From a bacterium (lineage in GTDB: Bacteria; UBA8248), in assembly GCA_965213625.1 (NCBI GenBank), contig CBDBZU010000004.1, forward strand, positions 1,344,001-1,408,000: a DNA stretch of 64,000 nucleotides. The letters run 5' to 3'. The position numbers and the translations under genes were made by a program. Positions 362 to 24,393 of this stretch are shown piece by piece; within the stretch, counting starts at the first letter, position 1, and each line of letters starts with the position of its first letter. A model generated the notes under the pieces. The model worked only from the letters and a program-made list of their open reading frames with translations, did not search any database and was not told the DNA's origin.

Positions 362-1720
362 ATGCCGAGAAGAGTCGCCATAATCGGTGCGGGAGTTTCA
401 GGACTGGGGGCGGCCTGGACGCTGAACCGCCACCCCGACAGATTCGATTTCAGGCTCTTTGAGGCGCAGTCCCAGGTGGGCGGCAACGCCGTCACCGCCG
501 ACATGCCGCAAGACGACGGCGCCTCGATTCCCTTCGATATTTCCGTCACCGCCTGCATCCCCTCGGTATACCACCACATTCTTCTTCTGATGCGGCAATA
601 CGGGGTCGAGCTTGTCGATACCCGGTTCAGCTACAGTGTGAAGTATCGAGGCGGTGTTTATGCGCACGATTTTGACTCCGACATCAGGCGGCAGCTTCAA
701 CCGGAAATCGAGAAATTCCAGAAACTGTTAAAACGCCTCAAGTGGTTCGGCGCTCTCAGCCGCTCGCGCTCCAGGTTCCTGGCCGCCCTGAACCCGTTCA
801 ACTACGTGAGCATGGGCGCGGTTCTGAACCTGGGCAAATTTTCAGGCGATTTCATGTACAAGATCCTGAAGCCCATGTTCGTCAACTTCCTGATGGCCAC
901 GAATGTGTTCGATATGCCCGCGTCCCTGTTTTCGAGGTACCTGGAGTTCTTCGACATAGAATCAGCCACGCCCATGCAAACCTGGGGCGGCTGTACGCGC
1001 CGCATCTACGAGGAACTTTCAGCGGACTTCCAAGAGAAGATTTACCTCGAGCGGCCGGTCCGAAAGGTGTATAGAAGTTCATCCGAAGTCGTCGTGGAGG
1101 ATGAAGAGGGGAAAACGGAGAAGTTCGATGACGTCGTTTTCGCGTGCAACGCGAACCAGACGCTGATGATGCTGGATGCGCCGACGCGCTTCGAGAACTG
1201 GCTCCTCTCCTCGATAAGGTATGAGAGCGAACTGCACAATCACACGATCGTTCATTCGGACGCTTCGGTGCTGCCGGAGAGCGACGTCAAGGCGCTCGAA
1301 ACCCGGAGCAACCACATCGAGCAGTACAGCGTGCGGCCCGACAACTACGAGATTACCTACATCATGCACAACCAGCAGCCCTGGGCGAAGCGCTCGGACA
1401 AGCCGTGCCTGGTGACCTACAATCCCATCAGTCCTATTGATGAGAGGAAGATCGTCAAGAAGTGGTGGTTCCAGCACATCGTGCACGACGTGCCGCACGT
1501 GGCCTTGCTCATGCCGATGTTCCGCTTCGCTCAGGGCAGGAGGCGGACTTGGCACTGCGGTGCCCACACGCTCATCAACAGCCAGGAGACCTGTTTCGTG
1601 ACAGGCCTCGCCGCGGCAAGACAATTGGGAGCGGACTATCCGTTTCAAGATATTGAGGCGAGGAAGTGGTTCAACTTCTACGGGCGCACGATGTACGGCC
1701 GGCGTTTCAAGAAGGCGTGA
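362..1720 (+). CDS. FAD-dependent oxidoreductase (COG2907/amine-oxidase-like), probably lipid-modifying
   Basis: N-terminal Rossmann motif VAIIGAGVSGLGAA followed by LFEAQSQVGGN; GAGGGAGG RBS upstream; 452 aa. Confidence 0.8.
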   Translation: MPRRVAIIGAGVSGLGAAWTLNRHPDRFDFRLFEAQSQVGGNAVTADMPQDDGASIPFDISVTACIPSVYHHILLLMRQYGVELVDTRFSYSVKYRGGVYAHDFDSDIRRQLQPEIEKFQKLLKRLKWFGALSRSRSRFLAALNPFNYVSMGAVLNLGKFSGDFMYKILKPMFVNFLMATNVFDMPASLFSRYLEFFDIESATPMQTWGGCTRRIYEELSADFQEKIYLERPVRKVYRSSSEVVVEDEEGKTEKFDDVVFACNANQTLMMLDAPTRFENWLLSSIRYESELHNHTIVHSDASVLPESDVKALETRSNHIEQYSVRPDNYEITYIMHNQQPWAKRSDKPCLVTYNPISPIDERKIVKKWWFQHIVHDVPHVALLMPMFRFAQGRRRTWHCGAHTLINSQETCFVTGLAAARQLGADYPFQDIEARKWFNFYGRTMYGRRFKKA

Positions 1721-1848: not shown

Positions 1849-2057
1849 TAGAGAGCAGCCATGGTCTGGTCGCGTAGTGCAGCGATTAAGATTTTCGTGA
1901 ACGGACGCGGGCAAGGAACAATTTTAAAATGGCAGGTCCGGTTTTGAGAAGAATTATCATCCGCAAACTGATAGGATATAATCATGGAAGGACGCGACAC
2001 GTATTGCTTTCTGCATCTGCCGACTCTGCTGATGGCACTCAAACGGAGGAAACTATA

Positions 2058-2873
2058 ATGCGCGCTCGTCTCGCCCGCACTGTATTCTTGCTTCTCGTAA
2101 TCTGCACGTACGCTCTGGCTCATCTCTCCACCGTGCCGCATGCGGAGAGCGCGACGCCCGAGGAGAAGGGTCTCCAGATCGCGCGCGAAACCCGCGAGAA
2201 AGCCAAAGGTTTCGGGAATTTCACGGCCGAGCAGAGCATGGTGCTTCGCAACAAGCACGGCCAGGAGAGCCGGCGTCAGCTCCGCGTGAAGGTTCTCGAG
2301 ACGGACGGAGGCGGCAACAAGAGCCTGTTCGTCTTCGATCGTCCGCGCGACGTGAGGGGCACTGCGCTGCTCGTTCACACCCATAAGAAGAAGAACGACG
2401 ACCAATGGCTCTACCTGCCCGCTCTCAAGCGGGTAAAGCGCATCAGTTCGTCGAACCAGTCGGGCTCGTTCATGGGCAGTGAATTCGCCTATGAGGACAT
2501 GGGTACGCAGGAGGTGGAGAAATATACCTACCGCTACTTGCGCGATGAGCCTTGCGGAAAGCTGACCTGCACGGTTGTCGAGCGCTTCCCGACGAGCAGG
2601 AGGTCGGGCTACAGGCGTCAAATCGTCTGGCAGGACAAGAGCGAGCTGCGCGCCTGGAAGGTGCAGTACTACGACCGGAAAAACTCACATTTAAAGACGC
2701 TCACACTGGGTAAATTCAAGAAGTATCTGGGTAAGTACTGGCAGGCCGGCGAAATGACGATGGTGAACCACCTGACGGGAAAGAGCACCGTTCTTAGCTG
2801 GAAGGATTACAAGTTCCGCACCAACCTCAAAGAGCGAGACTTCACCCGGACCGGGCTGAAACGGGTGCGCTGA
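2058..2873 (+). CDS. Outer-membrane lipoprotein-sorting (LolA-like) periplasmic carrier protein
   Basis: GGAGG RBS before ATG 2058; signal peptide; motifs PRDVRGTALL, DDQWLYLPALKRVKRI, SFMGSEFAYED. Confidence 0.85.
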   Translation: MRARLARTVFLLLVICTYALAHLSTVPHAESATPEEKGLQIARETREKAKGFGNFTAEQSMVLRNKHGQESRRQLRVKVLETDGGGNKSLFVFDRPRDVRGTALLVHTHKKKNDDQWLYLPALKRVKRISSSNQSGSFMGSEFAYEDMGTQEVEKYTYRYLRDEPCGKLTCTVVERFPTSRRSGYRRQIVWQDKSELRAWKVQYYDRKNSHLKTLTLGKFKKYLGKYWQAGEMTMVNHLTGKSTVLSWKDYKFRTNLKERDFTRTGLKRVR

Positions 2874-4129
2874 TGCCGCTGCGCGCCGCATTTTTCCGCG
2901 CGGTACTCGCCGCTGTCACGATATGGGCCGTACTCATCTTCGCCGGGGCGAGCCACGGGGCCGAAAGCATTGAGCACGAGTTTTCCGGCAGCCTGGACAT
3001 CGATGGCCGGTGGTATCCCCAACTCCAAGCCCATCCCGAACAGCGCACACACGCGAGCGGTTTGGCCGTCGAACCGAAACTCCATTTCAGGGGCGAGGGC
3101 GACTGGAGTTTCACGCTCGCGCCGTTTTTCCGCTACGACGGCGCGGACTCGCGCCGAACCCACGCCGACCTGCGCGAAGCCTACCTTCTGGTGTTCGGTG
3201 AAGCCGGCGAGGGGGAATGGGAGCTACGGCTGGGCGTGGACCGCGTGTTCTGGGGCGTCACCGAGTCGCAGCACCTGGTCGACATCATCAACCAGACCGA
3301 TCTCGTCGAACATCCGAACAAGGAAACAAAGCTGGGCCAGCCCATGGCCCACCTCACATTGTCGGCGGAGTGGGGCATCCTGGAGTTTTTCGCCCTCACC
3401 TATCACCGGGCGCGCACCTTCCCGGGCCTTCATGGCCGCCTGCGCTCCTCGATTCTCATAGACGATGAGCACGTCTCATACAAAAGCGCCGCCCAGGAGT
3501 GGCGCGTGGACCTCGCCGCCCGCTACAGCCACAGCTTCGGGCCGTTTGATTTGGGTGTCAGCGTATTCGACGGGACCAGCCGGGAGCCTTATATCATGCC
3601 GCACCTGGACTCTCTCGGCAGGCTGAGCCTGCGGCAGCACTATGAGAAAATTCGCCAGGTCAGCGTGGACGCCCAGCTCACAATCGAGTCGTGGCTGTTC
3701 AAGCTGGAAGCCCTTCAGCGCGAAGGCGCGCGAAACCTCCAGGGCGTGAAAGAGGACTTCGCCGCTTTCGTCGTCGGGGGTGAATACACCTTCAACTCCG
3801 TTTTCGGCTCGGCCGCCGACCTCGGCCTGCTAGCCGAATGGAATTACGACGAGCGGCGCGAGCGCTCGAACTCCGAGTTCCAGAACGACTTCTTCTTCGC
3901 CGTTCGCCTCGGGCTCAACGACGCCCAGAGCACGGAGCTTATCGCCGGCGTTCTGGCGGACGCGGACCACACCACGCGCACCATGAGCATCGAATTGAGA
4001 CGGCGCCTTTCGGATCAGTGGTCCATGAAGCTGGAATCGATCATTCTCATGGACGTCGACGAAGAAGACATCATCCATGACACGAGGCGGGACAGCTTCG
4101 TGGCCCTGAACGTGACGTATAATTTCTAG
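2873..4129 (+). CDS. Outer-membrane beta-barrel protein, partner of the LolA-like/MMPL system
   Basis: Signal peptide, amphipathic strands, DLREAY and VFWGVTES motifs, C-terminal YNF; translationally coupled (TGATG) to the upstream gene. Confidence 0.75.
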   Translation: MPLRAAFFRAVLAAVTIWAVLIFAGASHGAESIEHEFSGSLDIDGRWYPQLQAHPEQRTHASGLAVEPKLHFRGEGDWSFTLAPFFRYDGADSRRTHADLREAYLLVFGEAGEGEWELRLGVDRVFWGVTESQHLVDIINQTDLVEHPNKETKLGQPMAHLTLSAEWGILEFFALTYHRARTFPGLHGRLRSSILIDDEHVSYKSAAQEWRVDLAARYSHSFGPFDLGVSVFDGTSREPYIMPHLDSLGRLSLRQHYEKIRQVSVDAQLTIESWLFKLEALQREGARNLQGVKEDFAAFVVGGEYTFNSVFGSAADLGLLAEWNYDERRERSNSEFQNDFFFAVRLGLNDAQSTELIAGVLADADHTTRTMSIELRRRLSDQWSMKLESIILMDVDEEDIIHDTRRDSFVALNVTYNF

Positions 4130-4599: not shown

Positions 4600-6633
4600 T
4601 CAGGAAGTGAGGGCGACTGCCCGGTGGTCACTTGCCGCCCGATCAGATGAGAAGATCGGGCGCTTCGACTTGATTCGGAGCTTGAGGCTCTTGCGAGGGG
4701 TGCAGGTCGGAAACGGGTTTATCTTGACCGGGTAGCTCGATGGCAGCACTTCAAGCTCGAAGTAGTAGGCGATCATCAAAAGATTGATCGTCATTTGATA
4801 TTCCGCCACCCTCGGGCCGAGGCAGGTGTGCGTACCGAAACCGAATGCCCCGAACGCGCCGGGTTTCTTGTGCTCCTCGCGCCCGGAAAGATACCGGTCG
4901 ATGTCGAACTTCTCCGGATCCGGATAGTTCTCCTCCATGTAGTGAACGGCAGTGGACGCCAGCACGACGCGGGCATCGATGGGTAGTTCATAGCCCTCCA
5001 CGATGCAGCTGTTCATGACGGTTCTCAGCTGCAACGGTACGCTGGGATAGATCCGGAGGGTTTCTAGAATCAGCCGGTGGGCGGTGTCGATGTTCTCCTC
5101 CTTCAAGTCCTCAGGTCCCGGGTCTCCGTTCGCGAACAGCGCCTCGGCTTCCCTGCGCACACGCTGAAAGACATCCGGATGGGAGACCATCAAATAGAGC
5201 CCGAACGCGACGGCGGTGCCCATATACATGGCTGCGACGAACGGGATGATCATCATGAACCTGGTATCGGTATCCGGGAAGTACTGTGGGTCGCTGGTGT
5301 GCAGGCTGAGCAGGTCGTCGATCAGGTCGCGGGGTTGGTTTTCGCGCTGCGCAGGGGTGTGCGAGTTGCGGATCATGGAATAGACGTGGTCGATGCGCTG
5401 TCGGATGGCCTTCATCCGAGGCGTTCGCATGAAGAACTTCGGCAAAATCTTCTGGGCGTAGGTGATCAACATGCGGTTCTTGTATTTGTGGATGTCGTCC
5501 ACGTATTCTGAAAAATCCATACTGAACAGGAGCCGGGATACCTGGCCGGACATCAGAGTGCGGGTTGCGTCCTTGGCGACGAGCACGTCGCCCACGTTCC
5601 ACGAATCAAGCGCCAGCCGCATCTCTTCGAACAGGTCTCCGAGACGGTTGTTCAGGCGGCTCCGGGAGGAGGCCATCTGGAACGCCTTGCGCATGCGGAA
5701 ATGTTCGGCCCCGTCCATGCCCGGCAGGCTTCTCGATGCGCCGAGTACCTTCTCCATACCCTCCATGGTTTCCTTTGAACGCAAGTGCATCCGACCGTTC
5801 CGGTTTACCCAGATGTTGGCATCGTTCCCGGCGATGATGAAAACTCTCTTCTTGGAAAGGGGAGACTTGATTGCGAAAACGGGACCATAGTCGCGGTAAA
5901 GATCGGCCAGCAGTTTGGACGTATTCCCTTGCCAAAGCGAATCTTTGCGGAGCATTTTCCACAAGCTTACGTTGGGAATGGGTTTTGTCGCTATCGCGAT
6001 AGAGCGACTGACCGATGTCTCCACGACGGCGGCGGCGACGGAGCGGCTGATGCGGTCCAGCATGCCCAGCAGTTCGATTCGCTCGCGCGAAGCCTCGTAG
6101 TCTGCCGGCTGCAGAAGAAACCGGAACGCGTCGCAGGAATTGGCAAGTCCGATGATAATTGCGTCACGGGGGTCGGGTATGCCGTCTCCCAGGATCGTCT
6201 CGATGATTCGCCGACGTACGATTGCCCGAGACTCGCCGCTGGACATACCGTTGTCCGCTATAGCCGCGTTTCGCGAAAGAGACCAGAAGCCGCCGTTCGT
6301 ATAGTCCAGGATCCCGTTTTTCGACAACCGTCCGAGAGCATGATGCAGGATATCGTCCGACGTAGCGGCGATTTTCTCGACCCAGTAATTTATGCTGCGT
6401 GGCTCCGGATCGGCGGCAATTGCCGCCAGCACGGGGTCGAGAATATCGTCTCCCACGGGTGTGGAATCGTCCAGCGCAAACGTCTCGTGCGCGGTGTCGA
6501 GACGGGACTCGAGGTCAAGGTCCGCCAGCACGGCGCCTGCCATAACGCACGAGAGATTCCAGCCCGCAACCTGTTCGAGATAGCCGCTCTCTTCGTTCAG
6601 CAAGAGAAGCAGGAGCTCGTCAATTAGTTTCAT
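4600..6633 (-). CDS. Cytochrome P450 with N-terminal GPP34/GOLPH3-like domain
   Basis: Heme motif FGFGTHTCLG, ExxR (ETLR), PEKFDIDRY. The first ~210 aa (ELLLLLLNEESG, AGAVLADL, GDDILDPVL, PDPRDAIIIGLA) match the GPP34 pattern. Confidence 0.85.
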   Translation of the reverse strand: MKLIDELLLLLLNEESGYLEQVAGWNLSCVMAGAVLADLDLESRLDTAHETFALDDSTPVGDDILDPVLAAIAADPEPRSINYWVEKIAATSDDILHHALGRLSKNGILDYTNGGFWSLSRNAAIADNGMSSGESRAIVRRRIIETILGDGIPDPRDAIIIGLANSCDAFRFLLQPADYEASRERIELLGMLDRISRSVAAAVVETSVSRSIAIATKPIPNVSLWKMLRKDSLWQGNTSKLLADLYRDYGPVFAIKSPLSKKRVFIIAGNDANIWVNRNGRMHLRSKETMEGMEKVLGASRSLPGMDGAEHFRMRKAFQMASSRSRLNNRLGDLFEEMRLALDSWNVGDVLVAKDATRTLMSGQVSRLLFSMDFSEYVDDIHKYKNRMLITYAQKILPKFFMRTPRMKAIRQRIDHVYSMIRNSHTPAQRENQPRDLIDDLLSLHTSDPQYFPDTDTRFMMIIPFVAAMYMGTAVAFGLYLMVSHPDVFQRVRREAEALFANGDPGPEDLKEENIDTAHRLILETLRIYPSVPLQLRTVMNSCIVEGYELPIDARVVLASTAVHYMEENYPDPEKFDIDRYLSGREEHKKPGAFGAFGFGTHTCLGPRVAEYQMTINLLMIAYYFELEVLPSSYPVKINPFPTCTPRKSLKLRIKSKRPIFSSDRAASDHRAVALTS

Positions 6634-6822: not shown

Positions 6823-7563
6823 TTATCCGCCGTCAGGATCCGCCAGACGCTCGACCGCTTTTTTGTGAACAAGCCGCTCAAATGCGTCTTTCGGCGGCAA
6901 TCTTATCGCGCGCTCGAGTAGATTGCGCGCCTTCGCGCGGTTCTTTTCGGCATCCAGGCTCAGAAGGCCGAGCGCGTACTCGTATAAGGCCACCTTGTCC
7001 CGAGGCGTCAATTCGAGCGCCCGTTCGAAATGGACGAGTGCTTTCTCTTCGTCCGCCCCGTAGAGCAGACCGGCGAAGAATCCGCCTGCGCCGACGGCGC
7101 CCGCATGCCAGGCGGCCAGGCTTACATGGGCGGCCGCCATATTCGGCTCCAGCCGAAGCGCCTCCTCGATGGCATCGCGCACTATACCGGCGTAGCCTTC
7201 CTTGAGCGCCTGAAGCGTCCCGACCACCTGCGCCTGGCGGCCCATGGCGTGGGCTAGTTGGAGATGGGCCTCGGGGTTGACCGCGTCGAGCTTTATGGCT
7301 TCTCGTGCGGACTCCTCGGCCCGCTCGAACAAGCCCGCCTTTTCGCCTTTCGGCGCAAGGTAGTAGCCGTATATCGCCAGTGAATCGGCGGCCAATGCAT
7401 GGCCTTTGGATGTGCCGAGCGTCCGGGCGAGAGAGGCGGCCTCCATGAAGCGGCCCTCGGCGTATGCGGCGCGGGCTTCTTCTATCGACTGTGCGCATGC
7501 AGTTCCCGCCGGATCGAACGAGCACGAAATCATCAGGCACACGAGGATTATGATTTTACGCAT
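6823..7563 (-). CDS. Secreted TPR-like helical repeat protein
   Basis: Signal peptide MRKIIILVCLMISC; repeats such as AIKLDAVNPEAH, ALRLEPNMAAAH, ALELTPRD. Start re-called from 7815 to ATG 7563. Confidence 0.7.
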   Translation of the reverse strand: MRKIIILVCLMISCSFDPAGTACAQSIEEARAAYAEGRFMEAASLARTLGTSKGHALAADSLAIYGYYLAPKGEKAGLFERAEESAREAIKLDAVNPEAHLQLAHAMGRQAQVVGTLQALKEGYAGIVRDAIEEALRLEPNMAAAHVSLAAWHAGAVGAGGFFAGLLYGADEEKALVHFERALELTPRDKVALYEYALGLLSLDAEKNRAKARNLLERAIRLPPKDAFERLVHKKAVERLADPDGG

Positions 7564-7667
7564 ACCGCGTATCCCGGGGATCGGCGGATTCCATGACCGT
7601 TTCGGTTGGAAAGGGGGTTTCTTGAGCATTGCGAGAGGCGTTCGTTTCGCCAAGAAGCCGCCTGCCC

Positions 7668-8690
7668 CTAATCCGGCTTGCGGGCGAGAATGAAATACAT
7701 TGGGGTGAAAATGCCGAGGCGGCCCGTTTCGGCGAATACTTCGGCGGCGAGGTTCAGCAGGCTCGATACCCTGGTCGTCCCGCGCGGCACGATTCTCAGG
7801 AGTTCGAGAAACCATAGCGTGCTGTGCGTCAGCCGACGCCCGACGGCCGAGGAGCGGAAGCTAGCCAGGGACAGACCGGAGCCGACCAGCGGTTGATACC
7901 AGGGAATGCCGGGCGGCGCCTCGGCGGCGAGGTCGCACGATTCGAGCAACTCAAAACCTGCCTGACGCACTGCTTCTTCGATTTCCCGAGGCCGGGCGAT
8001 AAACGGCAGGCCGCCGCTATGCTCCATATCGGCCTTGAGCTTCAGCATTTTGGCATCTTGCGCATCGAAAAGGTCGGTCATGCAGTATTCGTAAACCCCC
8101 AAAAGAGCGCCGGGCTTGAGTACACGAAACGCCTCGGCATAGACACCGGCCTTGTCCGGCGCGCAGCAGGTCGCCTCGATAGAATAGGCGGCGTCGAAGC
8201 TGCCCTCCTGCGCATCCAACTGCATGAAATCGCATTCGATAAAATCGGCCAGATGGCTCAAGCCCGCCGCTTTGGTCCGTTTCGCGGCCCGTTCAATGTG
8301 CATCGCATTGTTGGTGATACCGGTAATCCGGGCACCGGAAAAACGGGCAATTTCGATCAGAGGCCCGCCTACGCCGCAACCCAGGTCGACCGCCTCCATG
8401 CCGGGCTTAAGATTCAGCCTGTGAGTGATGTAATGCTCATGGCGCGCGAGCGAGGCGGCGAAGCTCTCTCCTTCGACACGCGGCGCGAAATGGAATGAGT
8501 GTCCCCATCCGTACTCGTAGAAATCGGTGACCAAGTCGTAATAGTTGTTCGCGAAGTTCAGGTAATCAGTCTTGCGCTCGTCCAGGCCGCCGCGCTCGGC
8601 GCCTCCGTAGCGCCGGTCGTACTCCTGCGCGCTAACTTCGACACGGTCACCGGATTTTGCGTCTTTCAGGATATCAGTGAGCTTGGGCAT
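7668..8690 (-). CDS. Sterol 24-C-methyltransferase-like protein (SMT-A, ERG6/SMT1 family)
   Basis: YYDLVTDFYEYGWGHSFHFAPR, SAM motif DLGCGVGGP, YSIEATCCAP, C-terminal GIFTPMYFILARKP. Confidence 0.9.
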   Translation of the reverse strand: MPKLTDILKDAKSGDRVEVSAQEYDRRYGGAERGGLDERKTDYLNFANNYYDLVTDFYEYGWGHSFHFAPRVEGESFAASLARHEHYITHRLNLKPGMEAVDLGCGVGGPLIEIARFSGARITGITNNAMHIERAAKRTKAAGLSHLADFIECDFMQLDAQEGSFDAAYSIEATCCAPDKAGVYAEAFRVLKPGALLGVYEYCMTDLFDAQDAKMLKLKADMEHSGGLPFIARPREIEEAVRQAGFELLESCDLAAEAPPGIPWYQPLVGSGLSLASFRSSAVGRRLTHSTLWFLELLRIVPRGTTRVSSLLNLAAEVFAETGRLGIFTPMYFILARKPD

Positions 8691-8745: not shown

Positions 8746-9771
8746 CTAATCCGGCTTGCGGGCGAGTATGAAATACATCGGGCTGAAGATGCCGAGCCGA
8801 CCGGCTTCGGCCATGGCGACGGCAGTACGGTTCAGCAGGCTCGAAACATGGGTCGTCCCGTGAGGCACGATTCTCAAGCGTTCGAGTAGCCATAGCATAT
8901 TGTGGGTCAATCGGCGTCCGACTGCCGAGGCGCGGAAGGTGGTGAAGGAAAGGCCGGAGCCGACAAGCGGCTGGTACCAGGGGATGCCGGGCGGTGCGTC
9001 GGCCTCCATGTCGCGCGCTTCGAGCAGTTCGAAGCCGACCTGTCGCAGAGCGTCGTCGACTTCGTGTGGCCGGGCGATATTCGGCATGGCGTTGCCATAT
9101 TCTACATCGGCTTTGATCTGCCGATGATCGGAATTTTCAGCGTCGAACCTATCGGTCATACACCATTCGTATGCCGCGAGAAATTTCCCGGGCTTGAGCA
9201 AGCGGAAAGCTTCGCCATATATAGCGACTTTATTGGGTGCACAGCAGGTCGACTCGACGGAGTAAATCGCGTCGAAGTAGTTGTCCGGCGCGTCGACATC
9301 CATGAAATCGCATTTCAGATATTCGGCCAGATGGCTCAGATGTTCGGCTTCAGTCAGCTCTGCGGCGCGCTTCAACTGGTATGCGTTGTTATTAACGCCG
9401 ACGATTTTTGCGCCGGAAAAGCGGGCGATCTCGCACAATGGACCGCCGACGCCGCAACCCAGATCGGCTACCACCATACCGGGCCGTAGGCCCAGCCTGT
9501 GGGCGATGTAATGTTCATGGCGCGCGAGCGAAGCGGCGAAGCCCTCCCCATCGTAACGCGGCGCGAAGTGAAAGGACTTGCCCCAGCCATACTCAAATAA
9601 GTCTGTAACCAGATCGTAATAAGTGTTCTCGTAATTCTGGTAGTCGGCCTTGCGCTCATTCCGGCCGTCGCTCTCCATGTCGCTGAAGCGGCGCTCCCAC
9701 TCCTGGATGCGCGAGGCGACGTCGTCGCCGGATTTCGCGTCTTTCAGTATCTCCGTGAGCTTGGGCTTCAC
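8746..9771 (-). CDS. Sterol 24-C-methyltransferase-like protein (SMT-B)
   Basis: YYDLVTDLFEYGWGKSFHFAPR, DLGCGVGGP, LKPGKFLAAYEW, GIFSPMYFILARKP; GTG start overlaps the MMPL stop (GTGA). Confidence 0.9.
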   Translation of the reverse strand: MKPKLTEILKDAKSGDDVASRIQEWERRFSDMESDGRNERKADYQNYENTYYDLVTDLFEYGWGKSFHFAPRYDGEGFAASLARHEHYIAHRLGLRPGMVVADLGCGVGGPLCEIARFSGAKIVGVNNNAYQLKRAAELTEAEHLSHLAEYLKCDFMDVDAPDNYFDAIYSVESTCCAPNKVAIYGEAFRLLKPGKFLAAYEWCMTDRFDAENSDHRQIKADVEYGNAMPNIARPHEVDDALRQVGFELLEARDMEADAPPGIPWYQPLVGSGLSFTTFRASAVGRRLTHNMLWLLERLRIVPHGTTHVSSLLNRTAVAMAEAGRLGIFSPMYFILARKPD

Positions 9772-12063
9772 CGCAAGTCCATACGGTCAAGGACCATCAA
9801 CAGGGGCGGGAGGAGCAGGAGGTCCAGGAACAGCGCGAAGCCGAGCGTAAGCGCAACCAGGAGGCCGAGCATCCAACTGATCGCGAATCCCGACAAAGCG
9901 AACACCAGGAAGCCCAGCACCAGCATCATGGTCGTGGTGAACAGCGCAAAGCCTACCGAACGGAAGGAATAGCGCACCGCCTCGATCGATGAAAGACCCT
10001 CCTCGCGACGTCCCTTCAGATACTTGCTCATGAAATGAATCGTGTCGTCGACGACGGTGCCGAAGGCGATTGCGGTCACGAGGGACCCGGCGGGCCCCAC
10101 CTCGACGTACAGATAACCCCAGACGCCGAAGGCCATGGCCGCGGGGATGAGGTTGGGCACGAGGCTGACGAGGCCTAAGCGCAGGCTCTTGAAAATCCCG
10201 ATCAGGATCAGCGAAATGAGGATCATGCCCGTGAGCGTGCCCCATAACATGCTCAAGGTGTTCCGTAAGGCCAGGTGGGCGAAAATGAGGCTGTACCCCG
10301 ATGCTTCGCTCGCGAGTTTGGGCGCGTTGGCGCGGAGCCAGTCCTGCCCACGCGCTTCGAGCGCGCGCAGTTCCTCGGACTTCAGTCTTTTGACCGTCAC
10401 GGTCATGCGTGTTGCGGATTTGGCGATGTTGATGCGGTTGTTGAGGTCCATGCCAAAGGGAACCGAAAGCTCGTAGAGCAGCAGGTACTGCGCGGCGAGC
10501 CGGGAGTTTTCGGGCAGCCGGTGGAAGGCCGGCTTGTCGCCGTTCATGTTCTTGTTGAGGCGCTTCATGATGTCCGTAAATACCTGCACGTGCGCGACTT
10601 CCGGCTGGGCGCGGTACCACTTGGCGAATGCTTCGACTTTGCCCAGATACTTGGGATCGGTGATGCCGCCATCGCGCCCCGAGTTCAGGGAGTACTCCAG
10701 GGTTTCCACGCCGGTCAGGTTCTCGATGACGAAGTCCGTGTCGCGCCGGAATTCGTAACGCTCATCGAGGTGCTGCGTCCAGTTGTCCGTCAACTCGACG
10801 CGGGGCACGCCGGCCACGAGCGCGATCGCGACGGCGGCCACGGACCAGAGCAGGAGCGTGCGGCGCGCGACGACGAAGGCGCCGAGGCGATCGAAGAGGT
10901 TGGAACCCCCGGCGCGTACGGCAGGCGCGCGCAACGGCAGGACCGACATCAGCGCCGGCAGAAGCGTCATGGAATAGACGTAGGCGCAGAACATGCCGAA
11001 CGCCACCAGGTTGCCGAGGATCCGGAATGGCGGAGAATCCGAGGCGTTCATGCTGAGGAAGCCGATAATCGTCGTGGCCGTCGTCAGGAACACCGGCCAG
11101 GCATTGTCGCGCAGCGATTCGGCAATTGCCGCGTCCCTGTCCAGGCCACTCCTCATACTTGAAATGATCGACTCGACGACGTGGACCGAGTGCGCGATGG
11201 CGAGCGTCATGATGATGAGGGGAACGCCGGAATTGGCGGCGTTGAGCACCAGGCCTATCCAGCCGATGACGCCCATGGTCGAGATGACGGTGAAGATGAT
11301 CACGGCGATGAGAGACAGCGTGCCGAACAGAGAGCGCAGAAGGATGGCGGCGACGAAGACGATGACGAAGAATGCGGCGGGCGCGAGTATCCCCATATCG
11401 TCCTGGGCCGCTTCGGTTAGAACCTGGTTCACGAAGACGTTGCCGGTTACGTGATATTGGATATCGGGATGCTTCGCCCGGGCTTTGGCCAGGAGTCCGC
11501 GGATATGGTGGTAAATCCGGATTTCCGCGGCGTCCGAACGCTCGGGCAAGGCGAAACTGATGACCAGCCCGGCAACGCGTCCGTCGCGGGAGACGAGACG
11601 GTCCACGATGCTGCTCTCGCTTAACGCAATCTTCTTTATCCGCGCGATATCGTCGTCGCCGAGCGACCCCGCGTCGTCGACGAGGCGCTCGACGATCAAG
11701 TCGTCCTCTTCCGCCTCTGTGTGGTTATAGTTCGTAATCGAGTCGACCCGTGTGGCCCTGGGCACGCGCCAGGCGGCTTCGGTCAACTCCTCGACGGCGC
11801 CGAGCGCCTCCCGCGTGAACACCGACCCCCCCTTTGGGCGCGACGGCGATCACCGCCGCATTGGTCGCTGAATAGGTAGCCTCCATGGCGTCGAATGCCA
11901 CGAGTTGGGGGTTGCCCACGTCCAGCATGTCGCGCCAGTCGTTGGAGATGACGATTGTGCGGAGGCCGACTGCCAGAATCAGCATGACCGCTACGCTCGC
12001 CGCGAGGACCAGCCATCTGCGGCGCAGCATGAACGTGATGTAGCGGTTCAGAGTTGCGGACAT
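9768..12063 (-). pseudogene. MMPL/RND (COG1033-type) lipid transporter, frameshifted in a G7 run
   Basis: ORFs 11725-12063 and 9768-11822 join into a full-length paralog of 20459 and 24394 if one C of the run 11826-11832 is removed (restores KGGSVFTREAL). Confidence 0.85.
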
Positions 12064-14046: not shown

Positions 14047-14970
14047 ATGAGACTGATTTCACACCGTAATAACACTTGTAATCGAATAGTCGTCGTGGCG
14101 GCCGCCCTTGCCGTCTTCCTTCTGGCGGCGTTCGCACCCGATGCGCGCGCCGCAGATTCGGGCGCGGATTCGAGATGGTACTTCGGCTTGAACGTGCCCG
14201 TCATGTTCATCGACGACTCGGACAGCGTCGAGACCGGGGAAGCCGTAAGGGCAGGGGCCCCCCTGCCAGTCCCGTACAGGGCGAACGCCGTCACGGAATA
14301 CGCTACGGGGTTCCGGGTCAGCGGCGTGGTGGGCCGTGAATTCGCCTCGGGCCTGCGCATCGACGGCGAACTGTTCTTCGCCAAGGCCGAGGTCGACAAG
14401 CTGATCTACAAAGGACGGACGACGACCGTTCCGGTACTAGGCACTATAGATGTACCGGGCGACCATTCCATCCCCGTGTCCGGCTCGGCGACCCAGGTGG
14501 GCGCCATGGTGAACCTCTGGTACGACTTCAATCCCGGCTCCAAATGGAGGCCCTACGTCGGCGGCGGCTTCGGCTTCGTCCGGGTCGACTGGGGCAACGT
14601 GAAGTATAACCGCAACGAGGTCGCGCAAGGGGCCGCGAACCAGCTTGCGCTCATCGGCGCATGCGCGCGGCTGATGCAGCCACCGGGCTGCGCTCTGCCT
14701 CCTCAGGTCGAACAAGGGGTAATCAGCCAGGCCACCCTGCCTCCGGGGACCGTGCCCGAGCTTTCCGAAACCGATACGGTGGCCGCCTTTCAATTCGGCG
14801 CGGGAGTGGGCTACCAGTATTCCGACGCCCTCACCATCCAGTTGGGCTACCGCATGCTGAAAGCCGGCGACCTGGAGTTCAGCGGCGGCAGCGCCATGGG
14901 TTCAAATGCCACGGCGACGACCGAAATGCTGGTTCATCTCTTCGAGATAGGTTTGCGCTATCGGTTCTAG
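14047..14970 (+). CDS. OmpA/OmpW/opacity-like small outer-membrane beta-barrel with long loop insertion
   Basis: Signal peptide; MVNLWYDF, PYVGGGFG, FQFGAGVGY; C-terminal IGLRYRF. Confidence 0.8.
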   Translation: MRLISHRNNTCNRIVVVAAALAVFLLAAFAPDARAADSGADSRWYFGLNVPVMFIDDSDSVETGEAVRAGAPLPVPYRANAVTEYATGFRVSGVVGREFASGLRIDGELFFAKAEVDKLIYKGRTTTVPVLGTIDVPGDHSIPVSGSATQVGAMVNLWYDFNPGSKWRPYVGGGFGFVRVDWGNVKYNRNEVAQGAANQLALIGACARLMQPPGCALPPQVEQGVISQATLPPGTVPELSETDTVAAFQFGAGVGYQYSDALTIQLGYRMLKAGDLEFSGGSAMGSNATATTEMLVHLFEIGLRYRF

Positions 14971-15102: not shown

Positions 15103-16140
15103 ATGCCGATGAAAACCGGCCAACAAGAGATCAAGGAACCACGCGCGCTTTATCCGTTTCCGGAAGGCTGGTACTTCGTCGCCACCCGAAAGACGATAGA
15201 AAAGAAGAAGCTGATCCAGAGAACCAGGATGGGCGAGCGAATCGTCGTCTGGTGCGACGATGAGGGGCGCATCTGCGTGGCCGAGGACCTCTGCCCGCAC
15301 CTGGGCTCCGAACTCGGTCCCGAGGTCGGCGGTATGGTGCGAAACGGCTGCCTCGTCTGTCCCTTTCACGGGTTCGAATACGACGCCACCGGGCAATGCG
15401 TCAAGACGCCCTACGCGCCCGCGCCCCGGACCGCCAGGCTGAACGTGTTCGAGACGCGCGAGATTCTGGGCCTCGTATTCGCTTGGTGGGGGGTGGGCGG
15501 ACGTCCGCCGCAATGGCGCCTGCCGGAGGAGCCGGGTGGTGACGACTGGAGCGACCTCGAAACCTGGAGCGTCAGGTTCACGGGGCATCCCCAGGAGACT
15601 ACCGAGAACTCCGTCGACGACGGACACCTGCGCTACGTGCACGGCTTCGGCAGCGTGAACCGGGTCGGAACCATCGAGGTGGACGGCTCCTACCTCAAGA
15701 GTTGCTTCGACTTCACGCCAAGCCAGACTTTCGCCGGGATCAATATATACACATACGACGTTTCCACGATCACCCACGTGCACGGGCTGGGCTATTCGTT
15801 CGTCGAGGTCCAGGAGCACGGCATCGGCATGGAAACGCGCCTGTGGGTGCTTGCGACGCCGGTCGACGGCGACCTGCTCGAAATGGTGCTGGTCAGCCAG
15901 GTGAAGCGAATGCGCAAGCCGAAGCGTGCGATCATCGGCATGCGTTTCCTGCCCGTCGGCCTGCGCACCTGGCTCATGAACAAGATCATCATATCGGCCC
16001 AGAAACGCGACGTGTTGTCGGACGTCGTCATATGGGACCGGAAACAGTATATTCCCCGCCCCCGCCTGTGCAGCTCGGACGGGGAGATTGGAACCTTCCG
16101 GCGCTATTGCGAGCAATTCTATCCGGAGCATACGGATTGA
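15103..16140 (+). CDS. Rieske [2Fe-2S] oxygenase, Neverland/DAF-36 (cholesterol 7-desaturase) or KshA-like
   Basis: CPHLG...CPFHG Rieske motif; ENSVDDGHLRYVHG mononuclear iron motif; N-terminal FPEGWY; C-terminal DVVIWDRKQY...LCSSDGEIGTFRRYCEQFY. Confidence 0.85.
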   Translation: MPMKTGQQEIKEPRALYPFPEGWYFVATRKTIEKKKLIQRTRMGERIVVWCDDEGRICVAEDLCPHLGSELGPEVGGMVRNGCLVCPFHGFEYDATGQCVKTPYAPAPRTARLNVFETREILGLVFAWWGVGGRPPQWRLPEEPGGDDWSDLETWSVRFTGHPQETTENSVDDGHLRYVHGFGSVNRVGTIEVDGSYLKSCFDFTPSQTFAGINIYTYDVSTITHVHGLGYSFVEVQEHGIGMETRLWVLATPVDGDLLEMVLVSQVKRMRKPKRAIIGMRFLPVGLRTWLMNKIIISAQKRDVLSDVVIWDRKQYIPRPRLCSSDGEIGTFRRYCEQFYPEHTD

Positions 16141-16231
16141 GTCCGGAAGAGCGAGGCCGCCGGGTGAGACGTCCACGCCATCGCCCGCGCGGGTTTCGCC
16201 GCAGACGAAGAGGGAAGGGATACGCCACGCC

Positions 16232-17266
16232 ATGGATATAGGCAAGCTATCGAAAGAACTCAAGGATGCCTACCAGGAGGGGAACGTCACCCGTCGCGTG
16301 CAGGAATTCGAGGACTGGATCGACCGGGCGACGGCGGAGACCGACGGCGCGAGCGGGTACGACCACACCGAAACGGTGAAGGCCTACTACGACCTCTGCA
16401 GCGGTTTCATGGTGTGGGGTTGGGGCGAATCCCTGCACTTCGCGCCCCTCACGCCGCATGAGAGCCTGGAGGACTCCAAAGTCCGGCATCAGCGGTGGAT
16501 GATCGACAAGCTGGAACTGGAAGAGGGCATGACGGTGGTCGACGTCGGTTGCGGCATCGGCGGCCCGATGCGCCGCGTCGTCCGTGAGGCCGGCGTGCGG
16601 GTCGTCGGGATCAACATCAACAAAATCCAGTTGGAAAGGGCGAAGAGGCTGAACGCCGAGGCGGGGCTGGACAACATGATCGATTTCGAGGCGTGCAGCT
16701 TCATGGATATGAGCGCCATCGAGAACGAAACGTTCGACCGGGGCTACGCCATCGAGTCGACGTGCCATGCGCCGGACAAGCAACGCGCGTTCGCGGAGAT
16801 ATACCGCGTGCTGAAACCCGGCGCCCTGTTCTGGGGTCAGGAGATGTGCCTGACGGACAAGTACGACCCGAACGACAGCCGGCATCAGGCCATCAAGCGC
16901 GAACTCATGCGCGGCATCGCGCTGAAAGACGTCGCGACGTTCGGGGAAGTGAACCAGGCGCTCGAAGCGGCGGGATTCCACGTCATCGAGGGAATGGACC
17001 GGGACGTCCAGGAGGGACCGTCCACGCCATGGTATCAACCCATGGAGAGCCGGCACGGGACGTTGGGCAACGCCTTGCGCAGGCTACCGCAGGGCCGCAA
17101 AGCGTTCCTCGCGGGATCGAAGCTGGCCGAGGTGGTTCGGCTGTTTCCAAAAGGCTCCGCGGAAGTCGTCCGGCTCCTGGACCGGACGGCGGACGCCTAT
17201 GTCGCGGGCGGCAAATCGGGTATCTTCACGCCGCTGTACTGTTTCCTGGCGCGCAAACCCCTTTAG
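16232..17266 (+). CDS. Divergent sterol C-methyltransferase-like protein (SMT-C)
   Basis: YYDLCSGFMVWGWGESLHFAP, DVGCGIGGP, YAIESTCHAP, GIFTPLYCFLARKP; start re-called to ATG 16232. Confidence 0.85.
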   Translation: MDIGKLSKELKDAYQEGNVTRRVQEFEDWIDRATAETDGASGYDHTETVKAYYDLCSGFMVWGWGESLHFAPLTPHESLEDSKVRHQRWMIDKLELEEGMTVVDVGCGIGGPMRRVVREAGVRVVGININKIQLERAKRLNAEAGLDNMIDFEACSFMDMSAIENETFDRGYAIESTCHAPDKQRAFAEIYRVLKPGALFWGQEMCLTDKYDPNDSRHQAIKRELMRGIALKDVATFGEVNQALEAAGFHVIEGMDRDVQEGPSTPWYQPMESRHGTLGNALRRLPQGRKAFLAGSKLAEVVRLFPKGSAEVVRLLDRTADAYVAGGKSGIFTPLYCFLARKPL

Positions 17267-20458: not shown

Positions 20459-22747
20459 TCACTTCTTCCGGTCGAGAGCCATCAGCAAGGGCGGCAGAAG
20501 CAGGAAGTCGGTGAGGAGCCCAAAGATGATCGTGATCGAAACCATGAGACCGAGTGTCCAACTCCCCTCGTAGCCCGATAACGTGAACATCAGGAAGCCC
20601 GCCGACAAAACCACGGTCGTTGTCCATAGCGCATGTCCTACGGTGCGAAAGACGGCGCCTACGGCCTCGGGCGCGGTAAGGCCCTCGCGGCGGCTCTTCA
20701 GGTATTTGCTCAGAAAATGAATCGTGTCGTCCACGATAATGCCGAAAGCGATTATGGTCATCACGGAGGCTGCTAGACTCACGCGGCTTACCAGATAACC
20801 CCACAGGCCGAAGGTCATGGCGGCGGGAATGAAGTTGGGCACGAGGCTGATGAGGCCCAGGCGCACGTTTTTGAAAACCAGGATCAATATGAGCGAAATG
20901 AGGGTCATGCCGATGAACGTTCCGCGCAGCATGCTTTTCATGTTTCGTTGCGTGAGGTGAGCGAAGATCATGCTGATACCCGATGCTTCGGCTGCGAATT
21001 CGGGTATGTTGGCGCGCAGCCAGGTCTGCGCGCGCAGATCGAGCGCACGTAAGCCTCGAGCCGAGACGCCCTGGACCGTTACAGTCATTCGTGTTGCGGA
21101 TTTCCCGACATCGATGCGGTCGTTGAGGTCGCTGCCGAACGGAAGGGAAAACTCATAAAGCAGCAGATATTGCGCGGAGAGCCTGGAATTCCCAGGCAGG
21201 CGATAAAAGGCCGGGTCGTCGCCATGCATGTTCTTGTTCAAGCGCTTCATGATATTCGTGAACGCCCGGACGTGGGTGACTTCGGGCTGTTTTCGGTACC
21301 AATCGGCGAAGGCCTCTACTTTTTTCAGGTATCCGGGGTCGGTAATGCCGCCTTCGCGCCCCGCTTTCAACGAGTATTCCAGCGAATTCAAGCCGGTCAG
21401 GTTTTTGATCACGAAATCCGTGTCGCGCCGGAACTGGTAACGATCATCGAACTGCTTCGTCCAATCTTCGCTCAGTTCATTCCGGGGAATACCGGTGAGC
21501 AAAAGGATCGTCAATATGGAGACGAACCAAAACAGGGGCGTGCGGCGCGCGACGACGAAAGCGCCGAAACGATCGAAAAAGCCGGACACTCCGTTGTGGC
21601 GACGAGGCGCGCGCAGCGGCAGGATTGAAAGCAGCGTGGGTAGAAGTGTGATGGAATAGAAAAAAACGGATAAAACCCCGAACGCCACCAGATTGCCCAG
21701 TTCCTGAAAAGGCGGTGAATCTGAGGTGTTCAGGCTCAGGAAACCGATCGCCGTCGTGAGCGAGGTGAGAAACACCGGCCAGATGTTGCTGCGAAGCGAT
21801 TCCATGATCGCCCCGTTTCTGTCCAGACCTTTTCGCATGGCGATAAGAGTGGTCGAGACGATGTGGATTGAATGGGCAACGGCAATCACCATGACGATGA
21901 TCGGGAGGCCGGCGGTGATGGGGCTGAACACCAGGCCTACCCACCCTGTGAATCCCATGGTGGTGTTGATGGAGAATATAATAACGAAAACGATAGCCAG
22001 GGTGCCGAGCAGCGAGCGCAGTAGAAGGGCCGTACCGATGATGACGACGAAAAACGCGATAAGCCCGATGTTCTCCATCGTACTCGCGGTGGCGTCGGCG
22101 ACGGTGCGGTTCAAAACGACGTTGCCGGTCAGGTAGTACGTGATATCGGGATGGCTCGTGCGGGCCTTGCTCAGAACGGCGTTCAGATAATCGGTTATCT
22201 CGACTACCACATTTTCTTGTTTTTCAGGCAAGACGAAAGTGATCACCAGCCCGCCCACGCGTCCACCCTGAGAGACCAGACGACCGGAAAGATCGGCCGA
22301 ATTCAGCGCGACCTCCCTGATGCGCGCGAGGTCGGTGTCGCTGAGCGCGCTCGCTTCATCGACGAGCGGCTCGACTATCAGATCATCCCCCTCCGCCCGG
22401 CTGTGGTTGTAGTTCGTGAGGGAGTCGACCCGGCTCGAATGCGGCGTCTTCCAGGCGGCTTCGGTCAACTCCTCGATGGCGCCGAGCGCCTCACGTGTGA
22501 ACACCGAGCCCTCGCGAGTCGCAATGGCGATGAGCGCCGTATCGGATTTGGAGTAGGTATCCTGCAAAATGTCGAAAGCAGCGAGTTGGGGATTGTCTTT
22601 GCCCAATAAAATACGGTAGTCATCCGAGACGGTGATGTAGCGGGTTCCCGCCGTCATCAGCAGCATGAGCAGAGAAACCAGCCCGACGATCAGCCAACGG
22701 CGGCGCAGAACAACATCTAGGTAGTGGTCCACATGCAAAAGAGTCAT
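20459..22747 (-). CDS. MMPL/RND family lipid transporter
   Basis: Two-repeat RND architecture; TSLTTAIGFLSL, FGIIVDDTIHF; GAGG RBS before ATG 22747. Confidence 0.9.
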   Translation of the reverse strand: MTLLHVDHYLDVVLRRRWLIVGLVSLLMLLMTAGTRYITVSDDYRILLGKDNPQLAAFDILQDTYSKSDTALIAIATREGSVFTREALGAIEELTEAAWKTPHSSRVDSLTNYNHSRAEGDDLIVEPLVDEASALSDTDLARIREVALNSADLSGRLVSQGGRVGGLVITFVLPEKQENVVVEITDYLNAVLSKARTSHPDITYYLTGNVVLNRTVADATASTMENIGLIAFFVVIIGTALLLRSLLGTLAIVFVIIFSINTTMGFTGWVGLVFSPITAGLPIIVMVIAVAHSIHIVSTTLIAMRKGLDRNGAIMESLRSNIWPVFLTSLTTAIGFLSLNTSDSPPFQELGNLVAFGVLSVFFYSITLLPTLLSILPLRAPRRHNGVSGFFDRFGAFVVARRTPLFWFVSILTILLLTGIPRNELSEDWTKQFDDRYQFRRDTDFVIKNLTGLNSLEYSLKAGREGGITDPGYLKKVEAFADWYRKQPEVTHVRAFTNIMKRLNKNMHGDDPAFYRLPGNSRLSAQYLLLYEFSLPFGSDLNDRIDVGKSATRMTVTVQGVSARGLRALDLRAQTWLRANIPEFAAEASGISMIFAHLTQRNMKSMLRGTFIGMTLISLILILVFKNVRLGLISLVPNFIPAAMTFGLWGYLVSRVSLAASVMTIIAFGIIVDDTIHFLSKYLKSRREGLTAPEAVGAVFRTVGHALWTTTVVLSAGFLMFTLSGYEGSWTLGLMVSITIIFGLLTDFLLLPPLLMALDRKK

Positions 22748-22848
22748 CGCCTCAGTGTGAAAGGTTCGGTACCGCTTCACGGACACCGATTCCAGCGCTA
22801 AGCGTTCATTTCATGGTTATGTAATGCGTGTCTCTGAGCGAACATCGT

Positions 22849-24022
22849 TTACCATTCGCTCTGTTTCGTCGCGCGTACGTGGTCAGGCATCCTGTAGCTG
22901 ATGCCTCCCCTGTCGTACTGCGCAGCGTCGAAAATCTGGGAGAACGCGTCTTCTCGAAAGAGTTTGGTGCCTCTCAACAATTGGAAGAGGCGTTCCCTGA
23001 CCCGGTAGTAGCCCAGCACCAGGGTTCTGCTTCTCAATGTCTTCGGATATTGGTAGGTGTCGGCGAGTTCGTTGCCTATGAGCGCTCGTGAAAGGCGGTA
23101 GGCGTACTTTTCCAGAGATTTTATTTCTGCTTCGCTCGTCAGCCCCGACATTATCGGAATGGCCTTGAATACCGTATTCGCCACGGCCAGACAATCAGAG
23201 TCCGGCGGCGGCTCGCACATGGAGGCGATATTGCGAAGCTCCCTCGCCTCTTGCTCGTTGGTGAAGAGGATGGTTTCGGGAACTCCGAGCAGATAGCCGG
23301 CGTAGCGCCAGATACTGACGATGCTTTCTTTTTCCTCCTGCGTGAGCTTGCCGCCCAGCGCGATTGCGTGTTCGAACTGACGTATGGAAAAAGTGTACAA
23401 GGAAACTCCGCCCAGGTGCGCCGCGCTCAGAGGCGTTCCCCACGCTTCGTGATCCCAGGCGTCGGAATTCGCCATCAGATGCCTGATCCGGGCATGGACG
23501 AAGCGAATGCGCATGGATATCTTCCATCCGTCGCCGTCTCTATCCAGCCCACCGGGATAATAAATTTCGACCATGTGGCGGTTATTCTGCCTGAGGCGTC
23601 TGATGGCTCCGTCATCCAGTCCGGTCACGCGCCCGGTGATGAAGAAAGATTTGGCGACGAGCGTCCCGAAGCCTTCCACCGCGCTGCCGACGGCGTATGC
23701 GATGAGCATGTTGGTCATGTTTTCGAAGAAGGCGCGCATGCCCGGCTTGAAGGCCTCGAAGTCGACCCAGGGAGGCACGTCGGAATCGACTTTCTCGAAG
23801 AAGTCGCGCAAGACTTTCGGAGCTTCGCGCAGAACGCCGTGGTGCTGCTCTATACCGGCCTCGATGAATGCGTGCAGGTCGTAGGCAGGGAGGGAGGATA
23901 TCTCCTCCATCACCCAGTTCGGCATCGCCTATGGTGGTGTGCCGGATGTAGTTGTCTACTGATTCTTGATCGAATTGATGATTGTTCTGATAACCTTCAA
24001 CGTATGCGGATGGTATTTGCAT
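22849..24022 (-). pseudogene. DUF2236/MpaB(Lcp)-like heme oxygenase, apparently frameshifted near 23914
   Basis: PPWVDF, RIRFVHARIR, WGTPL, WRYAGYLLGVP. The N-terminal segment MQIPSAY...HTTIGDAEL (ATG 24022 with RBS) is in a different frame from VMEEISS... Confidence 0.7.
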
Positions 24023-24393
24023 TGCCAAAAGGCCCCCTTCTAAGCCTATGCAGTGCTTACGCGAATCTCCCGGTGAGACGAAGTATGAATTCATCCGTAA
24101 AAGACAAGTCCGTCTATTCATTGGGTCACACCGGAACTAAGCGATGAGTAGACACTATCCAAAAGTAGTCAAAATATCCTCGCAACCTTGATGGCTCCTG
24201 ATAACTATTTGTTTCACCATTCTTTATGATATCAATATAATTACTTTAACATATTATCAAATTCATTTGGCTGCGCAAGAATTTTTTCAGACAACCCCGG
24301 ATGGGTTGCCTGTCCACATTCACCCGCAATCTCCGGCGGAAACAACTCGCAATCTCGAATCACTTGCCTGATGGGCGAGGCTGAATGGCGACG

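Follow-up and report, generated by a model that had tools for sequence, protein, structure and literature searches.

A GPP34-cytochrome P450 fusion with a tyrosine in place of the acid-alcohol pair, linked to predicted sterol-tailoring genes in bacteria

In the window (the whole 64,000-nucleotide stretch of bacterial DNA that was analysed), a GPP34 domain and a cytochrome P450 are encoded together by one gene. This fusion is confirmed as a real, conserved bacterial gene; it is a member of the published GPP34_L family, and the fusion itself is not new. The alignments show a P450 in which the Asp-Thr acid-alcohol pair has been lost through a one-residue deletion, with a near-invariant tyrosine in its place and the heme ligands intact. 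The gene also has a conserved linkage to genes for sterol methyltransferase-like (SMT) proteins, KshA-like Rieske oxygenases and RND/MMPL transporters. Within the open literature that was covered, we found neither the active-site split nor the link to a sterol cassette in print. We favour, with modest confidence, a cytoplasmic, non-canonical sterol-tailoring P450 with an accessory domain that does not read PI4P, its substrate and reaction being predictions; an unusual sterol enzyme is considered more likely than the published host-manipulating protein. The gene and its parts are as follows.

4600..6633, minus strand: GPP34-P450 fusion gene (GPP34_L, Tyr/deletion clade), 677 aa; one open frame, Pfam
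6019..6627, minus strand: GPP34 domain, residues 3-205, Vps74/GOLPH3 fold; Pfam and fold match
5980..6018, minus strand: short linker between the Pfam domains, residues 206-218
4702..5979, minus strand: cytochrome P450 domain, residues 219-644, with E524-x-x-R527 and the heme motif around C604; Pfam and fold
5224..5226, minus strand: Y470 codon, the I-helix Tyr where relatives carry Asp-Thr; helix one residue shorter
4822..4824, minus strand: C604 codon, heme thiolate ligand position (208 of 208 family members)

The original prediction was of a single 677-aa frame with a GPP34-like part followed by a P450, and it proposed as checks an HMM search with PF05719 and PF00067 and a census of domain architectures. 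This layout was confirmed. The frame runs uninterrupted from ATG to stop; PF05719 (GPP34) matches residues 3-205 over model positions 1-200 of 201, with 95.4 bits against a cut-off of 29.1, and PF00067 (P450) matches residues 219-644 with 149.3 bits against a cut-off of 22.8. For the census, a search that gave 707 homologs among 7999 scored candidates was used, and of the 120 homologs listed, at identities of 45-99%, 118 contained both Pfam domains, the remaining two being shorter, with one domain each. Positions 4300-7000 lie within a single contig, with zero differences, in two runs, made on different samples within one study, that may be where this DNA comes from. In addition, the domain junction is spanned by a 948-base contig from a sponge-metagenome run, with 54 differences (a copy about 94% identical). 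An assembly artefact or a chance read-through is ruled out by the 118 two-domain homologs together with the junction-spanning contigs. In the same genus, a near full-length match was found in 13 of 23 genomes, and Nitrospirales records hold proteins that are 72-76% identical to the fusion; we infer that this patchy distribution fits a mobile cassette. The source genome (4.1 Mb, 96.6% complete) carries three GPP34 genes, i.e., two P450 fusions and one short form.

No further Pfam family matched the 677-aa protein up to E 0.1, the GPP34 and P450 domains spanning the chain, and neither a fused flavin nor a fused Fe-S domain (BM3 type, CYP51-ferredoxin) was found in it by Pfam, the fold of the N-domain being that of Vps74. 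The span from A202 to P220 measures 17-20 residues throughout the GPP34-P450 family. The full-length predicted structure had a mean pLDDT of 83 and a pTM of 0.74. Since P450s filled the matches of whole-chain fold searches, the N-domain was folded alone (pLDDT 89.8). The C-domain model matched P450 folds with Z up to 36.0 (rmsd 3.0, 427 aligned); the top structural match was CYP184A1, solved with oleic acid, and among the solved structures fatty-acid, sterol and drug P450s tie, so that no substrate class is favoured. Names were general: Atlas clusters for the C-domain were generic P450 only, NCBIfam gave no above-cut-off name for the fusion or for 19 related and neighbouring proteins, and cluster look-ups yielded names for 2 of 10 clusters. 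The strongest hydrophobic stretch of the protein is the I helix and no signal peptide was visible by eye at the N-terminus; the protein is predicted to be cytoplasmic, with the modest confidence that applies to the preferred reading as a whole.

The family was described by Ferreira et al. (Microbiome 2025;13:4; PMC11706023), which supersedes the original statement that no characterised fusion of this kind was known. According to the available portions of that paper, GPP34 plus P450 is the architecture of 656 of 663 multi-domain GPP34 proteins, this GPP34_L form occurs in sponge symbionts only, and the GPP34 family is enriched in sponge symbionts and expressed. The gene studied here shares with GPP34_L the combination of PF05719 and PF00067 in one chain, the occurrence in many phyla, and the coexistence of short and long GPP34 forms, in several copies, within a genome. 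Conversely, GPP34 is modelled there as a secreted PI4P-binding effector, whereas a sterol enzyme is preferred here. The word "sterol" has zero occurrences in the main text and the spreadsheet supplement of PMC11706023 (the flanking-gene figure, a PDF, lies outside this scope), and active-site residues, PI4P residues and two P450 types are not treated in the portions of its Results and Discussion that were covered. In our literature search, which covered mainly open-access papers, no paper ties GPP34-P450 proteins to sterol genes or describes the Tyr replacement.

The active site was compared across 208 full-length family members, which correspond to 43 groups at 70% identity. C604, E524, R527, R537, H602 and R315 are invariant in all 208. 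Y470 is present in 207 of them, Asp or Glu at positions 466-472 in none, and Thr at positions 469-472 in eight. The I helix reads A-A-M-Y-M-G-T here and A-S-I-Y-L-G-S in the family, and one subgroup retains the Thr (A-G-H-Y-T); a profile search over 1.84 billion representatives gave close P450 relatives that carry A-G-L-D-T. In the alignment, the stretch between P464 and P486, both included, covers 23 residues in 17/17 deletion-type rows and 24 residues in 107/108 others. An alignment-free regular expression for helix length matched 169 of the 208 deletion-type proteins but only 13 of 89 others; therefore, the helix-length figures rest on the alignment count. The aligners differ on where the gap falls, one position directly preceding the Tyr and the other lying a few residues downstream of it, and the pair is missing either way. 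The original description of the P450 as complete overlooked the missing acid-alcohol pair. Normally this pair supplies the protons with which O2 is activated (PMC12937128, in its available part). P450s that function without the canonical pair have been described (PMC10988616, likewise in part).

A tree of P450 domains was built from 117 rows (126 aligned rows minus nine probable fragments, a CYP51-like row having been added) by a quick IQ-TREE run with SH-aLRT support only. All 50 GPP34-fused rows fall inside one branch of 53 (support 96), in which three rows are without GPP34, and this branch nests among stand-alone P450s; the gene of the window thereby falls in the single fused lineage of GPP34_L, for which the tree in PMC11706023 was based on the GPP34 domain. 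The 14 deletion-type rows, seven of which were added to the set, form one branch (support 100) within the fused branch; 12 of the 14 have Tyr and two have Asn. GPP34_L contains at least two active-site types, and the gene of the window is of the derived one. The nearest P450 relatives are stand-alone bacterial A-G-L-D-T proteins, among them a cluster named from Herpetosiphon; they differ from the fusion in being without GPP34 and in mostly retaining the acid-alcohol pair, which is kept in 65 of the 74 aligned rows without GPP34. For these stand-alone proteins we found no characterised function.

The genes around the fusion in the window are the following.

362..1720, plus strand: flavin amine-oxidase-like oxidoreductase; family in 27 of 80 related loci
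1929..2873, plus strand: LolA-like outer-membrane lipoprotein-sorting protein
2873..4129, plus strand: probable outer-membrane protein; weak DUF1302/porin matches, under cut-off
6823..7815, minus strand: TPR protein directly upstream of the fusion; translation probably starts further into the ORF; family in 13 of 80 loci
7668..8690, minus strand: sterol methyltransferase-like protein (PF08498, 80.5 bits)
8746..9771, minus strand: sterol methyltransferase-like protein (PF08498, 82.3 bits)
9768..12063, minus strand: MMPL/sterol-sensing-domain transporter; gene split by a frameshift within a run of G near 11830
14047..14970, plus strand: outer-membrane beta-barrel protein
15103..16140, plus strand: Rieske oxygenase with a KshA_C domain; best solved relative 3-ketosteroid 9alpha-hydroxylase
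16088..17266, plus strand: third sterol methyltransferase-like protein (PF08498, 57.6 bits)
20459..26682, minus strand: two more MMPL-family transporters (BLAST clustering), flanking an MpaB/Lcp-like oxygenase (22849-23925)

All three PF08498 matches and the sole PF19298 (KshA_C) match of the source genome lie within about 11 kb of the fusion. The SMT-like proteins were typed by Pfam alone, their activities being predictions, and they also match cyclopropane-synthase models, under cut-off. The Rieske protein scores 36 bits against the SdmA model, for which the cut-off is 600, and the MMPL transporters match the sterol-sensing model. A paralogous fusion of the source genome (G000:C4:61457) follows a squalene epoxidase-cyclase fusion. 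A simple motif scan of the first 30 kb of the window found no ferredoxin-type motif.

We then compared neighbourhoods in the best 80 of 514 confirmed loci, which were found with deletion-clade patterns, include close kin and come from records of nine phyla; flanks of 8 kb were taken where the contig allowed, and shadow frames were filtered before clustering. Rieske genes are present in 48 loci, RND in 41, SMT in 40, MMPL in 28 and the amine-oxidase-like flavoprotein in 27. A Rieske or SMT gene is found within 8 kb in 63/80 loci, an RND or MMPL gene in 69/80, and any of these in 75/80; gene order around the fusion changes freely. No redox partner recurs beside the fusion among the 80 loci. The canonical Asp-Thr fusions have another neighbour: a sulfotransferase is adjacent in 5/6 loci and SMT or Rieske genes are present in 0/6, this contrast set consisting of six loci only, obtained by searching 50 of the 80 carrier genomes. 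The sterol link made in the original prediction is borne out in this respect, as SMT, KshA-like Rieske and RND/MMPL genes adjoin the fusion here and in most relatives. Only 17 of the 80 carrier genomes match the sterol-cyclase half with an identity of at least 66%; another 14 have cyclase matches of 26-33% only, which probably represent hopene cyclases, and 49 have no cyclase match at all. The msb locus (PMC7074536) and the SMT clusters (PMC10070321) of sponge-associated bacteria similarly comprise, in the available parts of these papers, an epoxidase-cyclase fusion, a sterol reductase, a Rieske gene and an SMT gene; the cassette described here differs in occurring mostly in genomes without a cyclase. 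Bacterial SMTs of sponge symbionts methylate sterols in vitro (PMC10070321, in part). The term "P450" is absent from the main texts of both papers as available, and GPP34 is absent from the seven supplements of PMC10070321 that were searched.

The original prediction also saw in the GPP34 domain a lipid-targeting module. The N-domain model matches Vps74 with Z 18.4 (rmsd 2.4, 191 aligned) and GOLPH3 with Z 17.8 (PDB entries 3KN1, 9QPQ and 2ZIH for these two proteins), the next match being at Z 5.3, and the family profile aligns to full-length GOLPH3 with E 2.7e-11. The PI4P pocket is formed by W81, R90, R171 and R174, a beta hairpin is also needed for binding, and mutation of the pocket residues served as the test of the pocket (PMC2806290, available in part). 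In the profile alignment, W81 corresponds, across a small gap, to W25, which is present in 205/208 family members, and the G-Y..W motif is shared; in contrast to GOLPH3, R90, R171 and R174 correspond to A32, D93 and L96, respectively, and the ten residues W161-L170 of GOLPH3, before the pocket, have no counterpart. Among the 208 members, Arg or Lys occurs zero times at positions 31-33 and once at positions 92-97. The domain further differs from GOLPH3/Vps74 in being joined to an enzyme and in being acidic, with a net charge of -16 here (mean -17.6 in 43 sequences) versus +11 for the P450 half. Because the GPP34 fold comes without the basic pocket residues, the domain, as judged from its residues, fails as a PI4P reader in spite of its GOLPH3 fold. 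The lipid-targeting proposal survives in a weaker form only: the absence of the PI4P basic residues and the net charge of -16 count against it, and what is kept by sequence is just the hydrophobic hairpin tip, F116-W117-S118-L119 aligning with F194-L195-L196-F197 of GOLPH3. In the structure model, F116-L119 lie in a short second strand, after which come a helix and a loop of low confidence, and the hairpin may not project as it does in GOLPH3. The short GPP34 of the source genome keeps the R174 equivalent only among the pocket arginines, and 17/29 canonical-type fusions likewise keep this equivalent only.

In the reading that we prefer, the fusion would be a heme-thiolate enzyme within a mobile sterol-tailoring cassette. 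The RND/MMPL transporters would move sterol, mostly of host or community origin because most carriers are without a close sterol-cyclase homolog; the methyltransferases would alkylate the sterol side chain, and the Rieske enzyme and the GPP34-P450 would oxidise the product. As the customary relay of protons is missing, the P450 probably does not carry out a simple hydroxylation in the standard way; candidate steps are desaturation, radical rearrangement, and substrate- or peroxide-assisted chemistry with Y470. Further P450s that operate without the canonical acid-alcohol pair exist. The GPP34 accessory module would help the enzyme to reach its membrane-held substrate through the hydrophobic hairpin tip, or dock a partner protein, with no reading of PI4P, and electrons, if required, would come from a partner encoded elsewhere. 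It should be noted that gene neighbourhood does not prove a shared pathway, and that the activities of the neighbours are predicted from domains. A broader proposal, which we put forward tentatively and regard as rather doubtful, is that the Tyr/deletion clade represents an undescribed P450 catalytic class, the pair being reduced to one tyrosine, that travels with a sterol-tailoring cassette among sponge-associated bacteria of nine or more phyla, where it desaturates sterols taken from the host or acts on them by radical chemistry. If so, some of the unusual sterols of sponges would owe their structures to bacteria, and the GOLPH3 fold would ancestrally have served to support a lipid enzyme without PI4P. 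The clade would offer a soluble, expressible enzyme with a sharp oddity (Asp-Thr changed to one Tyr), for which its own cassette names candidate substrates; if active, it would bear on the makers of unusual sponge sterols, on the reading of sterane biomarkers and on how P450s work when the standard proton relay is missing.

The same active site can be read as that of a non-catalytic heme protein, in which Y470 occupies the distal site or acts as a ligand there. Such a protein would not oxidise sterol; it would bind, carry or sense it on behalf of the transporter and the methyltransferases. The acid-alcohol pair is missing in 208/208 members (by the Asp/Glu test) with a bulky Tyr fixed, a redox partner is neither fused nor recurrent nearby, and the RND/MMPL neighbours (69/80) are steadier than any single enzyme; however, every heme-binding residue is invariant, the A-G-H-Y-T subgroup retains Thr, and P450s active without the pair are known (PMC10988616, in part). 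We regard this as unlikely. It is more unlikely still that the GPP34 domain is a redox docking tag, whose GPP34-GPP34 contacts would bring the P450 to a GPP34-tagged ferredoxin or membrane cytochrome. Such contacts would be consistent with the self-association of Vps74/GOLPH3 through the hairpin (PMC2806290, in part) and with the opposite charges of the acidic GPP34 and basic P450 halves. Other fusions of GPP34 exist as well: the partner is a Rieske ferredoxin-type domain in one case (L015) and, in four loci, a membrane domain in which two His pairs are spaced by 14 residues, these membrane fusions adjoining a multiheme cytochrome c and a Tll0287-like gene. Conversely, none of the three GPP34 genes of the source genome is a tagged donor, no family matches the membrane domain (nothing at or above 0.9 in the Atlas), its heme binding being suggested by the His spacing, and in most genus-mates examined by eye the short form comes after a STAS-like gene rather than a redox gene.

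With respect to the substrate, the cassette might make or modify a non-sterol lipid, i.e., a fatty acyl chain or another terpenoid, as 63/80 carriers are without a close sterol-cyclase-half match, the methyltransferases have their sub-threshold cyclopropane-synthase matches, and the structure of CYP184A1 contains oleic acid. The sterol-specific C-terminal domain of the methyltransferases is nevertheless well over cut-off, the Rieske protein is nearest to KshA and the transporters match the sterol-sensing model, and we consider a non-sterol substrate quite improbable. Least probable of all is the proposal made for GPP34 proteins in PMC11706023, by which the protein would be a secreted effector that binds PI4P and slows the maturation of phagosomes in the sponge host. 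The true GOLPH3 fold with W25 at the place of W81, and the enrichment and expression of the family in sponge symbionts reported in the available part of that paper, agree with it. The replaced arginines, the missing W161-L170 segment, the near absence of Arg/Lys, the acidic charge and the incomplete pocket of the short GPP34 do not, and FHIPEP, VipB and VirB4-type proteins had no match in the 96.6% complete source genome; the residue and neighbourhood results speak against this model for the Tyr/deletion clade. Somewhat less remote, yet highly improbable, is that the fusion substitutes for CYP51 as a sterol 14alpha-demethylase. The best solved match of the family profile is Methylococcus capsulatus CYP51 (PDB 6MI0, 7JJ1, 6MCW; 115 bits, the next non-CYP51 match having 102), which shares the sterol-pathway context; the source genome, to which the CYP51 survey was confined, has an epoxidase-cyclase and an ERG4/ERG24 gene and no CYP51-like match above 48 bits, and the paralogous fusion adjoins the cyclase. 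However, identity to this CYP51 in the structural alignment is 18-19%, the CYP51 I-helix motif A-G-[Q/H]-H-T (A-G-H-H-T in the Methylococcus enzyme), with its Thr, is absent from the fusion, and most carriers are without a cyclase. A CYP51 origin of the fusion P450, hinted at by the profile search, found no support in either the tree or the co-occurrence of genes: in the tree the fusions sit among stand-alone A-G-L-D-T P450s, the single CYP51-like row lies outside the fused branch on a long branch, and one carrier genome (G012) clusters a CYP51-like gene (A-G-Q-H-T), ERG4/ERG24, a cyclase and the fusion together.

The two domains of the GPP34-P450 fusion (P0001; 677 aa, window 4600-6633, minus strand) appear to have changed together. 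Residues E14, G17, Y18, W25 and C29 (P0001 residues 14-29) are near-invariant across the deletion clade, i.e., the fusions that share the Tyr/deletion-type P450 of P0001, whereas the positions of Y18, W25 and C29 vary among the canonical-type fusions, which carry the Asp-Thr pair in the I helix. This near-invariance in one type and variability in the other suggest a joint change of the GPP34 and P450 domains. In the canonical type, sulfotransferase genes directly adjoin the fusion in five of six loci (L151, L152, L153, L156 and L158), and in the sixth, L154, a sulfatase lies upstream of it. The other genes and clusters considered, in the genome with the window (G000) and in other genomes, are as follows; L numbers denote loci.

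G000:C4:57822-66007 (L021), cyclase cluster: squalene epoxidase-cyclase fusion, second GPP34-P450, MMPL
G000:C3:26-1231, C4:69420-70306 and C4:1935139-1935435, P450 gene and P450 pieces
L161:9294-10601 and L162:8915-10222, stand-alone P450 showing a further unusual I helix
G000:C4:3615789-3616897, short GPP34 gene region (loci L011, L022)
L026:9901-11076, L031:6389-7564, L163:8284-9570 and L164:1228-2373, GPP34-membrane domain fusion genes
Window 12454-13902, DUF772 + DDE transposase, within the cassette, with the MMPL gene on one side and the outer-membrane genes on the other

The epoxidase-cyclase fusion of L021 is 1188 aa long, and the heme motif of its GPP34-P450, the paralogue of P0001, is degenerate around the Cys. 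L159 and L160 have an arrangement resembling this cluster. In another carrier genome, genes for an epoxidase-cyclase, a CYP51-like protein, ERG4/ERG24, GPP34-P450 and a sterol methyltransferase form a single cluster (G012:C23, L030:37-11516 and beyond).

Contig C3 of G000 (3.6 kb) carries a canonical non-CYP51 P450, and broken P450 pieces occur on the chromosome, one of them close to the cyclase cluster. The stand-alone P450s of L161 and L162 are identical in the segment compared, and their genomes belong to different classes.

Read by eye, a STAS-like gene of the anti-anti-sigma type lies 11 bases upstream of the short GPP34 gene in G000, a pairing common to most genus-mates examined. In the GPP34-membrane domain fusions, the membrane domain contains four invariant His residues, in two pairs with 14-residue spacing, and genes for a multiheme cytochrome c and a Tll0287-like protein come after the fusion gene; in the consulted sections of PMC11706023, the paper describing GPP34_L of sponge symbionts, this fusion does not figure among the architectures.

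Within the window, a frameshift in a G run near 11830 splits the MMPL frame (9768-12063), and may be either an assembly error or a real inactivation. Short palindromic repeats occupy 4190-4545, downstream of the GPP34-P450 fusion and between convergent genes, where coverage depth is several-fold raised, as expected of a dispersed repeat.
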